Positions 20,642-23,408 of a stretch of DNA of 64,000 nucleotides are shown here, one piece after another. The stretch is from an uncultured Myxococcales bacterium (GTDB taxonomy: Bacteria; Myxococcota; UBA727; JABDBI01). Every line of letters starts with the position of its first letter. Positions within the stretch are counted from its first letter, which is position 1. A model generated the notes under the pieces. The model ran no database searches, was not told the DNA's origin, and saw only the letters and a program-made list of their open reading frames with translations. The stretch covers positions 28,171-92,170 of the forward strand of contig CAYJDW010000002.1 of NCBI GenBank assembly GCA_964368985.1, read 5' to 3'. A program made the position numbers and the translations under genes.

Positions 20642-20840
20642 TTTCGTTCACTATCGTCTAGGACGAATGCCCACCCTCTAAGTTCAGAGTGTTTTTAAAC
20701 CAGGTGAGAGGAATAAAGATGGGAAGTCGCTTAATACTTATTATTGTACTTGAGTAGCGCCTACCACTAATTCTTTGGTTGCCTCACGGGCTTGCTAAAC
20801 TCTTTTTGGTAGTGAATAAGAAAGTTATGCCCAGTTTTTA

Positions 20841-22460
20841 ATGAGATTTAATATGTTTTATTTTTACCCATTTTTTATGTCGTTAATGTTTTATTGTTTT
20901 ATATTAAATGCGGACGATGAACAGCTAAATTTCACCGTTGCCGCAATGAGTGATGGCGAAATTGCAAACCAACAAATCAAAAAAGATGAAAAATTAAATA
21001 TAAAAGTTGTTTTAACCGAAGCAAGCAGACGCCATATTTTTGAAGGAAAAAAAACCGCAACAGGCTTTTCTGGTGGTCATGATTGGGATTTTCATTACGA
21101 TAATTATATCAAAAATGATCCCGCGGCAGACGTGTATTTTGACGTCAATCTTATGGCCTTCATTGTAAAGTCGTCTAAGGGAGATTCGCTGGTCGATATA
21201 ATAGATAAGTTAAAAAATAAAAAAGAGTTGCCATATTACCACACATTGTTTCCTTCATCATTCTTGAAGACTGAAAAAATTATATTGAATTCATTTAAAA
21301 AAGCTTTTATATCTTTTATGCTCGGAAGAGGAGCTATTAATTTAGATAAAGGAATATTTTATACAGAAAATATGGCAGCAAAGGATACTCCTGTTTTAAA
21401 AGTGGCAGGGGCATTCAGCGTTGCTTACAATGAACACGACAATATTTTTGAATTTAAAATTCATACTTTTTACCCGGATATCGACTGGTATTATCGTATT
21501 GATTTTAAGCATAATAGTGAAAATTTATTTTTCCACAGTCGTTTTATCAAATACATGCCTTGTTTTATTAATGCTCAAATCAAGCCCTTATGGGTACAAC
21601 GCGCTCATCAGAGTGAGAGGCTAGAGAAATCCACTCTCTATACCCCCAAACCCATCGCATTAGAATGGAATGCATCGCTTTGTAAAGACTGGGCCCTGAC
21701 TCTTAGCGAATTGAGTATGCAAGACCGTGTCGATTCTTATCTAAGACAAGAACATCTTAAGAACTTGCAGTTGGGGAGGAACAAAAAATTAAATTTTTTT
21801 GATTTTTTTAATTTCCAAGATTCTCTTACTGACGAAGAATTAGACCAAATAGTAGAGCTCTTAAAATTTTTGATAAAGAATTTTAATTACACGCATAATA
21901 ACTCGCTCGGTATGCTGAAAGATGCGTATAGTAAGCATTTTAGTAAAAATAAAAATAGATTAAAAATAAATACTTTTATTACGGAAAATTCTTCTGTTAA
22001 AATGTCACTCTATCTCAATCTCCATAATCAGGATTTCAACAAACAGTCTAATCCTGATATGAAGTTGATTATGAGTACAGTGAGATTTCATTCTTTATTA
22101 CAAATTTTTAATGACGATGCCCTGAAAACCTTTTTTCCTCAGCAAGACCTAAGAAGCTTAAGAAAAATAGTTACTCGATTTTATCATAACTTTGCGAGTT
22201 TTCTAATACCTGATACAAGCCTTCTTAGTCAGCTTTATAGTGAAAATTTTATTTTAGATACAGTTATGTTTGTAATGGGTAATTCCAACTATCATACAGC
22301 CCTAAGACTAGTGCATATTTCTTACACAGAAAAAGATTTAGCTAAATTTAACTTCGAAAGCGAAGACAAACACACATTGAGTATTGGTTTCAAAGATAAT
22401 AATATTATTGATGTTTTTGGTTCAAACCCAGGTGTAATTAATATTCTAAATAAAAAATAA
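20841..22460 (+). CDS. Orphan 539-aa hypothetical protein encoded in an AT-rich island; hydrophobic N-terminus
   Basis: Long ORF in a region of about 25-30% GC, against about 45% in the flanks. It is rich in Asn, Lys, Phe and Tyr. No motif recognised. Confidence 0.5.
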   Translation: MRFNMFYFYPFFMSLMFYCFILNADDEQLNFTVAAMSDGEIANQQIKKDEKLNIKVVLTEASRRHIFEGKKTATGFSGGHDWDFHYDNYIKNDPAADVYFDVNLMAFIVKSSKGDSLVDIIDKLKNKKELPYYHTLFPSSFLKTEKIILNSFKKAFISFMLGRGAINLDKGIFYTENMAAKDTPVLKVAGAFSVAYNEHDNIFEFKIHTFYPDIDWYYRIDFKHNSENLFFHSRFIKYMPCFINAQIKPLWVQRAHQSERLEKSTLYTPKPIALEWNASLCKDWALTLSELSMQDRVDSYLRQEHLKNLQLGRNKKLNFFDFFNFQDSLTDEELDQIVELLKFLIKNFNYTHNNSLGMLKDAYSKHFSKNKNRLKINTFITENSSVKMSLYLNLHNQDFNKQSNPDMKLIMSTVRFHSLLQIFNDDALKTFFPQQDLRSLRKIVTRFYHNFASFLIPDTSLLSQLYSENFILDTVMFVMGNSNYHTALRLVHISYTEKDLAKFNFESEDKHTLSIGFKDNNIIDVFGSNPGVINILNKK

Positions 22461-22462
22461 AA

Positions 22463-22507
22463 TGAGGCTAATACTTTTTTCAAAGATTGGAAAAAGTATT
22501 AGCCTCA
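22463..22507. terminator. 17-bp-stem hairpin (gaggctaatactttttt / aaaaagtattagcctc) directly after the 20841-22460 gene; terminator-like
   Basis: Inverted repeat seen in the sequence 3 nt after the stop codon. Confidence 0.5.
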
Positions 22508-23099
22508 CACTCCAGCTCGATATTTCTGTTTAGGAATTCTTAGCTAAGATCAGCACTTAAATGAATATTAATATGATTAAATAATTCTTCCCGACTTAGT
22601 TGTAATGCGTTTTGCACACAGATAGGGCAATAGAATTTGGTATTATTTTCGAAAATAAATTTTTCGGGATCTTAAGGTTTAAATATTTCCATCTAGCGCA
22701 AATTTATTATTTGTTCCTTCCAATATTAACGGCATCGGGGGAAACATATTGATTGATTGGAAACTTCTTTTAAAAACCATCGATTATTTTCTTGGTCAAT
22801 TGCACAATTATCACTAATTTTATTTACTCCTATAGAACAATTTACCAATGAATTAGGAGGTTTATCCGCGAAATAGCGGAAATTGATGAACGCTGCAGGC
22901 TTTTATCCTGAATTTCGAGAATGTATTACATAATGAAAAGCTTTTTGTTTTTTGCCTCCAATGTAATAATATCAATGAAATTATCGCTCTAAGATTATCT
23001 GAAATAATATTAAAATTATTAAGTTATATTAATGCTAATAATAGATCTGCGTCTCCTAACTGAAGCAGTCCTAGCTAAGATTGCTTTGTAGGTAGTCCA

Positions 23100-23408
23100 G
23101 TGAAATCTATTTTTCATAAAATAAAGCCTCAATTCTACCTTACGCTGGCATTTTTCGTTCTCGCTCATGCGGCCCATTTTCTGATGCCGCAGCAGGTGGC
23201 GCGTGTGCGTAATGAAGAACAACAGCAGGATATTGCTCTGGCTTGTGCTCTTTTAGAGGGGAATTCATTTAAGGATATTTGGATTTGGCTTCTTCTTCTT
23301 TGGGGCATTAAAATTATTTCCAAGAAAAAATCCAGTCAATCGAGCGGTCTGCCAATTTTTGACAGTTATCGCGGACATGAAACGAAAGGTCGTTCATCAA
23401 AGACCTAA
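23100..23408 (+). CDS. Hypothetical small membrane protein (possible GTG start)
   Basis: 102 aa with an N-terminal TM segment. It overlaps the start of the HlyD-like gene. Coding status is uncertain. Confidence 0.25.
   Translation: MKSIFHKIKPQFYLTLAFFVLAHAAHFLMPQQVARVRNEEQQQDIALACALLEGNSFKDIWIWLLLLWGIKIISKKKSSQSSGLPIFDSYRGHETKGRSSKT

Follow-up and report, generated by a model that had tools for sequence, protein, structure and literature searches.

A predicted exported EndoU-like ribonuclease encoded by an AT-rich accessory gene of an uncultured Myxococcales bacterium

The locus described here lies at positions 20,642 to 23,408 of a 64,000-nt stretch of DNA from an uncultured Myxococcales bacterium (the window, that is, the whole stretch that was analysed), and its main element is a gene on the forward strand (20841..22460, +) encoding a protein of 539 amino acids (aa). 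From its homologues and a structural model, we read this protein as a putative exported EndoU-like ribonuclease (RNase). The gene is preceded by a divergent intergenic region (20642..20840, G+C content [GC] 0.402) that presumably contains its promoter and has no homologue in the fetched loci; on the other side of this region lies a divergent ABC exporter of fused permease and ATPase (18794..20641, −; Pfam ABC_tran and ABC_membrane). The 539-aa gene is followed by an AT-rich spacer and a 102-aa open reading frame (ORF), and further downstream lie genes for an HlyD-like protein, a C39-peptidase ABC transporter (PCAT), a second ABC protein and a 1012-aa PLD protein. An earlier note, made from the sequence alone, had placed the gene between a divergent ABC exporter and an HlyD/PCAT/PLD cluster, and these neighbours were found as stated.

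A 400-nt sliding window shows that GC falls from about 0.45 to 0.29-0.34 at roughly 20800-23100 and then returns to 0.43-0.47, and in 1-kb windows no part of the 64 kb is lower than 21001-23000 (0.331 and 0.304; the window as a whole averages 0.442). The low-GC stretch is composed of two parts, the 539-aa ORF and then a 639-bp spacer (22461..23099, GC 0.308), with its boundary near 23100; positions 23100-23408 have a GC of 0.417. Among the 45 ORFs of at least 150 aa in the window, the 539-aa ORF counted in (mean GC 0.450, standard deviation [sd] 0.035; mean GC at third codon positions [GC3] 0.447, sd 0.050), the 539-aa ORF has the lowest GC (0.317, the second lowest being 0.381), and it falls 3.9 sd below the mean in GC and 3.0 sd below it in GC3 (0.298), the deviant composition by which genomic islands are recognised. 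The earlier note had described a sharp AT-rich island of 25-30% GC at 20700-23360; the scan and the ORF comparison bear out the drop itself, but the figure is slightly too low for the whole gene and the AT-rich part stops near 23100. GC at first and second codon positions (GC1 and GC2) is depressed along with GC3, and the protein is enriched in the four residues that had been singled out from the sequence (Asn, 8.3 versus 3.9%; Lys, 8.9 versus 5.9%; Phe, 9.5 versus 5.1%; Tyr, 4.3 versus 2.5%). Stop codons are estimated to make up about 7.6% of random triplets at such composition, and a chance open frame of 539 codons is excluded because its probability in DNA so AT-rich is about 1e-19.

Homology searches revealed a small family. 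Five clusters at 90% identity match the protein among 5.8 billion proteins, one of them being the same protein (99% identity) from several metagenomes and the other four sharing 27-36% identity with it, and an exhaustive HMMER search of 1.84 billion representatives yielded 28 family members. Full-length members are 476-568 aa long, and an alignment of 26 members shows overall identities of 17-36%, with conservation strong in the N-terminal half and weak in the C-terminal half. The protein had been called an orphan from its sequence, which is nearly right but, with 28 representative clusters, not strictly so. The metagenome-assembled genomes (MAGs) carrying the family are labelled Myxococcota or Myxococcales at NCBI and include a complete genome of 2.5 Mb (CP060221.1).

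A Pfam scan of the 26 aligned members associates the N-terminal half of the family with bacterial EndoU toxin domains. Nine of the 26 match PF14436 (EndoU_bacteria), with a best E-value of 9.3e-5, and no other family is matched by more than three members. Furthermore, in five members the alignment runs from profile positions 2-4 to position 128 (of 129), and in all five it falls on window residues 60-62 to 213, so that the similarity spans the whole domain at a consistent position; the BECR/EndoU fold expected of PF14436 is likewise recovered. These residues (60-213, encoded at 21018..21479, +) are taken here as the EndoU-like RNase domain.

Conservation within this domain follows the signature of the superfamily. 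In the published signature of EndoU domains, an N-proximal helix-turn-strand element bears a pair of catalytic histidines separated by 12-18 residues (PMC7297114); two conserved Ser/Thr/Asn residues pair with these histidines, and the last strand has an aromatic-Pro motif (PMC3482391, PMC7297114). The 26-member alignment has eleven invariant residues (H65, G69, G78, H80, D101, G114, H134, F137, G190, P212 and W251), with H65 in HIxxG, H80 in SGGHDW and H134 in YHTLFP. His65 (codon 21033..21035, +) and His80 (codon 21078..21080, +), the predicted first and second catalytic histidines, are thus present in 26/26 members with a spacing of 15, and in the structural model H65 is located in helix 60-67 and H80 after strands 70-72 and 75-77, in the helix-turn-strand layout of PF14436. 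S111, K113, R219 and R234 are near-invariant in the same alignment, as is position 209 (Thr or Ser) in the alignment of the N-domain; S111 and T209 are putative counterparts of XendoU S229 and T278 by the criterion of PMC3482391. The domain ends in T-F-Y-P212-D, an aromatic-Pro motif.

The full-length AlphaFold model has a mean predicted local distance difference test score (pLDDT) of 80 and a predicted template modelling score of 0.80, and a model of residues 26-262 reaches a pLDDT of 92.9. Relatives, profiles and model together reveal an EndoU-like N-terminal half in a protein that the earlier note had taken to be devoid of recognisable domains; its guess of an effector or toxin was apt, because this half is related to EndoU RNase toxin domains. 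The protein carries what we regard as an EndoU-derived domain in a new architecture, within a tiny uncharacterised family.

The N-terminus has the pattern of a Sec signal peptide. In the window protein, the signal-peptide-like segment comprises residues 1-24 (MRFNMFYFYPFFMSLMFYCFILNA, encoded at 20841..20912, +) and ends in FILNA, followed by DDEQ. In 25/26 members the most hydrophobic 12-residue stretch begins within the first 24 residues (mean Kyte-Doolittle 1.65-2.75), and most members present a Lys or Arg before the hydrophobic stretch and a small-residue site after it; the hydrophobic N-terminus seen in the single sequence is hence shared across the family. On near-identical contigs, gene callers place the start at the ATG at 20853 (residue M5), as deduced by coordinate mapping through the contig alignment.

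The remainder of the protein, residues 263-539 (21627..22457, +), is a family-specific C-terminal region of mixed α and β composition, with predicted helices and β-hairpins and a pLDDT of about 40-93 that falls below 50 in residues 498-539. This region has no Pfam match, no PDB sequence match and no Foldseek match, the best E-value of a Foldseek comparison of the full model with the PDB being 0.44. F323 and E333 are nearly invariant and form its sole strongly conserved motif.

Taken together, these data are best explained by an exported EndoU-like RNase, a reading to which we assign a probability of roughly 0.6. RNase activity, export route, target and biological role are all what we infer from homology, conservation and modelling. 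The protein would be built of four parts: a Sec signal peptide (residues 1-24), a short β-strand subdomain, the EndoU-like domain (residues 60-213) and the C-terminal region. The precursor would be exported unfolded by Sec, and the RNase would fold only outside the cytoplasm, where His65 and His80 would act as general base and acid in a metal-independent transesterification of the EndoU and RNase A kind, leaving 2',3'-cyclic phosphate ends, with S111, K113, H134, T209, R219 and R234 assisting catalysis. The C-terminal region (about 280 residues) would provide targeting, substrate choice, regulation or entry, and the substrate could be host or prey RNA, or extracellular or environmental RNA scavenged for nucleotides. 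For a gene that would otherwise be listed as hypothetical and without domains, there is now a testable prediction: its product would be an exported endoribonuclease that uses two specified catalytic histidines and belongs to a family of about 28 clusters. If the activity is confirmed, the EndoU toxin superfamily would gain a new architecture (N-terminal domain, Sec-exported, no immunity gene), and an uncultured lineage rich in eukaryote-like proteins would gain a candidate effector.

Several observations weigh against this assignment. Searched on its own, the window protein returns only chance Pfam matches (Corazonin, FPP) and no PF14436 match at E-values up to 1, and no family member reaches the PF14436 gathering threshold (best score 23.2 bits versus 25.3). 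Profile and single-sequence searches of PDB sequences gave nothing useful, and the Foldseek search of the PDB with the full model did no better than an E-value of 0.44. The Sec-type N-terminus, which we call signal-peptide-like, is judged from hydrophobicity only, and no link of the protein to a host, a prey or a delivery system was seen. Furthermore, the canonical catalytic Lys cannot be placed in the family. In the bacterial EndoU toxin 5HKQ, the Lys of the His-His-Lys triad is K261, followed by T262 (PMC9086364). K113 is one candidate for this role; by our own reading of the motif, YH134T135LFP probably matches the Lys-Thr-x-Phe-Pro of bacterial EndoU toxins, which would imply a Lys-to-His change. 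With His134-Thr135 at the Lys-Thr position, the chemistry may differ from that of EndoU, or the protein may not be a nuclease. A profile built from the N-domain alignment likewise provided no bridge to annotated EndoU proteins in the 5.8-billion-protein set, though this search did not return even the family members.

These points bear directly on the possibility that the protein is a catalytically altered EndoU fold, for example an exported RNA-, nucleotide- or ligand-binder whose likeness to toxins is ancestral only. Such a protein would account for PF14436 matches that all stay below threshold and for a triad Lys that is not identifiable and may be replaced by His134 (again on our motif reading); it would also explain the missing immunity gene trivially, and the novelty of the C-terminal half (about 280 residues) is in keeping with it. 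Against it stand the two EndoU histidines, invariant in 26/26 sequences despite identities of 17-36%, and the conservation of D101, S111, K113, H134, R219 and R234, a pattern typical of a maintained active site. On balance, we consider a non-nuclease quite improbable.

Comparison with known systems places the exported EndoU-like protein closest to the bacterial EndoU toxins (PF14436, Tox-EndoU; for example the CdiA-CT of E. coli STEC_O31, 5HKQ). The family shares with them a remote whole-profile similarity, detected in several members, as well as the His pair 15 residues apart in helix-turn-strand, putatively equivalent conserved Ser and Thr residues and the terminal aromatic-Pro (PMC7297114; PMC3482391). 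Several features set the family apart from these toxins: its scores stay below the Pfam threshold, no immunity gene accompanies it, and the toxin Lys-Thr is probably His-Thr. Instead of forming the C-terminus of a CdiA, Rhs or LXG carrier, the domain follows a signal peptide in the N-terminal half and is joined to a novel C-terminal region (about 280 residues).

The same differences speak to whether the gene belongs to a classical polymorphic-toxin or toxin-immunity system for bacterial competition, the gene for the immunity protein having been overlooked or lying at another locus. EndoU_bacteria domains typically occur in contact-dependent inhibition, Rhs and LXG toxins (PMC3482391; PMC9086364), and three members gave weak Imm51 matches. 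The latter score 12.7-14.9 against 29.8 bits and overlap the EndoU region, and we rejected them as noise. Neither a C-terminal toxin domain on a carrier nor an immunity gene directly downstream was found: the RNase domain occupies residues 60-213 of 539, right behind the signal peptide, and no credible ORF lies 3' of the gene, where the stop codon is followed by a hairpin and the 639-bp spacer, whose ORFs do not exceed 67 aa. In five other genomic contexts there is no conserved downstream gene, the downstream genes differing in every homologue context. No RHS, filamentous haemagglutinin, LXG or PT-VENN module was found, and because it lacks an Rhs, CdiA or LXG carrier the gene is not a polymorphic-toxin module. 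We hold a toxin-immunity system to be very improbable.

In the preferred reading, an exported RNase, the lack of an immunity gene would be explained by extracytoplasmic folding, as for periplasmic RNase I. This E. coli enzyme of the T2 family carries a Sec signal peptide that keeps a broad RNase out of the cytoplasm, so that no immunity protein is needed. The parallel with the 539-aa protein is a functional analogy only, fold and family being unrelated. With respect to eukaryotic and viral EndoU proteins, the His...SGxH[DN]W of the family resembles the HxFxGE...SGFHNW of XendoU-family proteins, and some eukaryotic EndoU proteins are secreted. The family differs from this group (XendoU, 2C1W; human or calcium-activated EndoU, 9FTW; coronavirus Nsp15; arterivirus nsp11) in having no Pfam XendoU match and other accessory domains. 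Other BECR toxins (CdiA-CT of Serratia BWH57, 7M5F; CdiA-CT of Kp342, 6CP9; BrnT, 3U97; RelE) are single units of about 80-120 residues with other catalytic residues; unlike them, the family has a longer, two-unit EndoU layout with the EndoU His pair, and no sequence similarity to them was detected.

A host- or prey-directed effector would be a narrower version of the exported-RNase reading, and matches the effector or toxin reading of the earlier note: the EndoU domain would enter a eukaryotic host or a bacterial prey, where it would cleave tRNA, rRNA or mRNA to kill or reprogramme the cell, with the C-terminal region as entry or targeting module. The nearest known domains belong to RNase toxins of the contact-dependent and polymorphic kinds, some genomes have more than one copy of the family, and the gene is accessory and AT-rich, as many effectors are. 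Eukaryote-like domains are found in the window (SET, approximately 12064-12504; RCC1-like, 10322-11530; PLD), and homologue contexts encode RhoGAP, RING, RCC1, AIG1 and ankyrin proteins; the occurrence of SET, RCC1, RhoGAP, RING, ankyrin and PLD proteins near members or in the window favours an effector, and the repertoire hints at a eukaryote-associated lifestyle. A search of the literature on the lineage's lifestyle returned nothing specific.

Strain diversity adds to this picture. Over the 21 kb aligned, the sister contig L011 matches the window at 99.6% identity, with 81 differing positions and a background of about 1 per kb. The 539-aa gene has 14 differing positions (8.6 per kb) where about 1.6 would be expected at the background rate, and it is therefore a local diversity hot spot. 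Such hot spots are common in effector-like or weakly constrained genes. The differences comprise 6 nonsynonymous and 5 synonymous changes and one codon indel, which is too few for a ratio of nonsynonymous to synonymous rates but is the raised diversity that an effector might display.

Against a host- or prey-directed effector, the Sec signal peptide leads to the periplasm only, no type III, IV or VI injection system is linked to the gene in any context, and the neighbouring PCAT needs a double-glycine leader, which the protein does not have. We regard entry into host or prey cells as a tentative and rather unlikely elaboration of the exported RNase. Still less likely, in our view, is a broader proposal in which the family would represent an unrecognised class of exported RNase effectors in a possibly eukaryote-associated lineage, with H134 in place of Lys, a novel C-terminal module aiming at or entering host or prey cells, no immunity protein, and an AT-richness that marks an exchanged or silenced gene pool.

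Comparison with related genomes shows that the 539-aa gene is accessory, because in the nearest other species rimO directly abuts the HlyD/PCAT/PLD operon. Sister strains at 99.6% identity all carry the gene, and contigs from several metagenomes keep the same arrangement. The comparison with a different species is based on one relative (L024/L025), the sole one recovered with this neighbourhood, whose amino acid identity to the window is 76% for rimO, 62% for rpsA, 76% for the exporter, 48% for the HlyD-like protein and 32% for both PCAT and PLD. In this relative, rimO is followed by 76 bp, the counterpart of the spacer junction, and then by the HlyD/PCAT/ABC/PLD operon, with no family member within 20 kb. 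The gene is thus absent from the same site in this one relative, as expected of a genomic island. Compared with this genome, the window has an extra 4.6-kb segment between rimO and the HlyD-like gene, made up of the divergent ABC exporter, the 539-aa gene, the AT-rich spacer and the 102-aa ORF. In the relative, the exporter is not lacking; it lies on the other side of the block (L024 10001-11860), beside NlpC/P60 and not after rimO. It is a core gene of normal GC with common orthologues at 45-94% identity, and each relative examined has it in a different neighbourhood. The lineage appears to have a highly fluid gene order, and since a normal-GC core exporter changes context in every relative, rearrangement is part of the history of the locus. 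Distant homologues of the 539-aa protein (at most 36% identity) occupy unrelated loci in other genomes, which, along with the two copies present in some of them, agrees with accessory status.

The low GC of the gene is itself a feature of the family: in 6/6 genomes checked, the family copy is AT-richer than its own flanks (gene 0.315-0.371, flanks 0.332-0.452). Low GC therefore travels with the protein family, and repeated exchange from an AT-rich pool and an intrinsic bias (amino-acid make-up, weak expression or silencing) could explain this equally well. AT-richness of a gene can be a family trait across genomes of differing GC, and alone it is no proof of recent horizontal transfer. No mobility gene was found among the scanned ORFs, which covered about 1-14800 and 18800-34100, no tRNA in the 64 kb, and no flanking repeats beyond chance-level AT-rich matches; tblastn against plasmids and phages and a scan of viral contigs gave no match to the 539-aa protein, and pattern scans of viral and metagenome contigs yielded no relatives. 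The earlier note had interpreted the composition as the mark of horizontally acquired DNA, a claim that stays unproven with no integrase, transposase, tRNA, flanking repeat, or phage or plasmid match, and with family-wide AT-richness fitting equally well.

An alternative history is that the low GC is not foreign at all, and that the gene is an old, lineage-specific one, AT-rich through its amino acids and weak or silenced expression and brought to its position by local rearrangement. The AT-richness relative to flanks in all six genomes, the joint depression of GC1, GC2 and GC3 with enrichment of Asn, Lys, Phe and Tyr, the lack of mobility genes, tRNA or repeats, the displacement of the adjoining normal-GC exporter relative to L024 and the restriction of the family to MAGs labelled Myxococcota or Myxococcales all agree with such a history. 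It is harder to reconcile with a GC3 that lies 3 sd below the window mean, beyond amino-acid bias alone, with the absence of the gene from the syntenic junction of the nearest other species, and with homologues of at most 36% identity at unrelated loci, which give a patchy look and not a vertical one. We regard an old resident gene as a real possibility, though short of an even chance.

Directly behind the gene lies a perfect 21-bp hairpin (22463..22507), found by inverted-repeat and folding analysis, which begins 2 nt past the stop codon and has a predicted ΔG of −27.9 kcal/mol. Its folding z-score is −8.2, and 0/200 shuffles fold as well, in line with the strong hairpin that had been noticed at the gene's end. 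Its U-rich tail is found solely on the minus strand, the plus strand being without a U-tract, and a consensus terminator scan did not call the hairpin on the plus strand. The hairpin need not work as a classical plus-strand terminator: it may terminate or insulate transcription that arrives from the spacer or the operon, or make the 3' end of the mRNA more stable. Strong downstream hairpins are also present at some homologues.

The AT-rich spacer (22461..23099) is presumed to be a regulatory region upstream of the HlyD/PCAT operon. It contains no convincing gene, its overlapping ORFs all being at most 67 aa. Rfam gave no match, and neither blastx nor blastn detected similarity to any of the fetched loci, so that the spacer finds no support as the remnant of a gene or as a known RNA. 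Sister contigs (L010-L015) are about 99.5% identical to the window in the spacer (3 differences in 639 bp) and are thus uninformative on its conservation.

The 102-aa ORF behind the spacer (23100..23408, +), which gene callers also predict on sister contigs, encodes two hydrophobic segments, has normal GC and overlaps the start of the HlyD-like gene. It has no Pfam match and no tblastn match in L023-L028, and could either be spurious or encode a small membrane protein belonging to the export system. Within the spacer, a 39-aa ORF (22757-22876, +) ends in FTNELGGLSAK and so places a Gly-Gly motif just 5' of the PCAT operon. The GG is followed by just four residues, and the sequence before it matches the leader consensus poorly; this ORF is most likely chance or a decayed peptide gene. 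No double-glycine-leader ORF was found in 20600-31500, and both the 539-aa protein and the small neighbouring ORFs were rejected as PCAT cargo, neither having a double-glycine leader. The N-terminus of the 539-aa protein is a hydrophobic Sec-type segment and not the double-glycine leader of a PCAT substrate, and because the protein has no such leader and no such peptide lies nearby, PCAT is not its exporter. The cargo of the PCAT cluster may be the PLD protein or something unlinked.

The HlyD-like/PCAT/ABC/PLD cluster itself (23377-31358; L024 1-5265) is conserved yet fast-evolving, with 32-48% identity against 62-76% for rpsA, rimO and the exporter. In one sister contig (L012 9991-12049, window approximately 26200-28283), gene calling splits the second ABC gene into two ORFs (229 and 394 aa), whereas other contigs have one of 686 aa, which suggests a frameshift or pseudogene in that strain. 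In the window, GC is lowered to about 0.38 in this gene and in the 5' portion of the PLD gene as well.

Some genomes carry two copies of the family (8446-9927 and 11660-13195 in L016; also L020 and L022). In L016, L017 and L019 the copies are 1.7 kb apart, with a methyltransferase-like gene between them and a RING-finger protein adjoining, and MAG_886 has family copies on two contigs. Other ORFs without Pfam match (490-511 aa) near the L016-L018 copies are not family members, save one second copy.

A second patch of lower GC (0.38-0.40) is formed in the window by 8417-9808, 10322-11530 and approximately 12064-12504, and holds a 463-aa protein without Pfam match, a 402-aa protein with a weak RCC1-repeat match, and then the SET-domain protein, which was identified through gene calls on a sister contig (L010). 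Eukaryote-like genes of the window genome tend toward more AT than core genes.

Among core genes, rpsA (15525-17372) accounts for 46 of the 81 positions that differ from L011 (24.9 per kb), a pattern suggestive of a recombination tract or an allele swap; the S1 protein that it encodes begins with a basic region rich in Lys, Arg and Pro.

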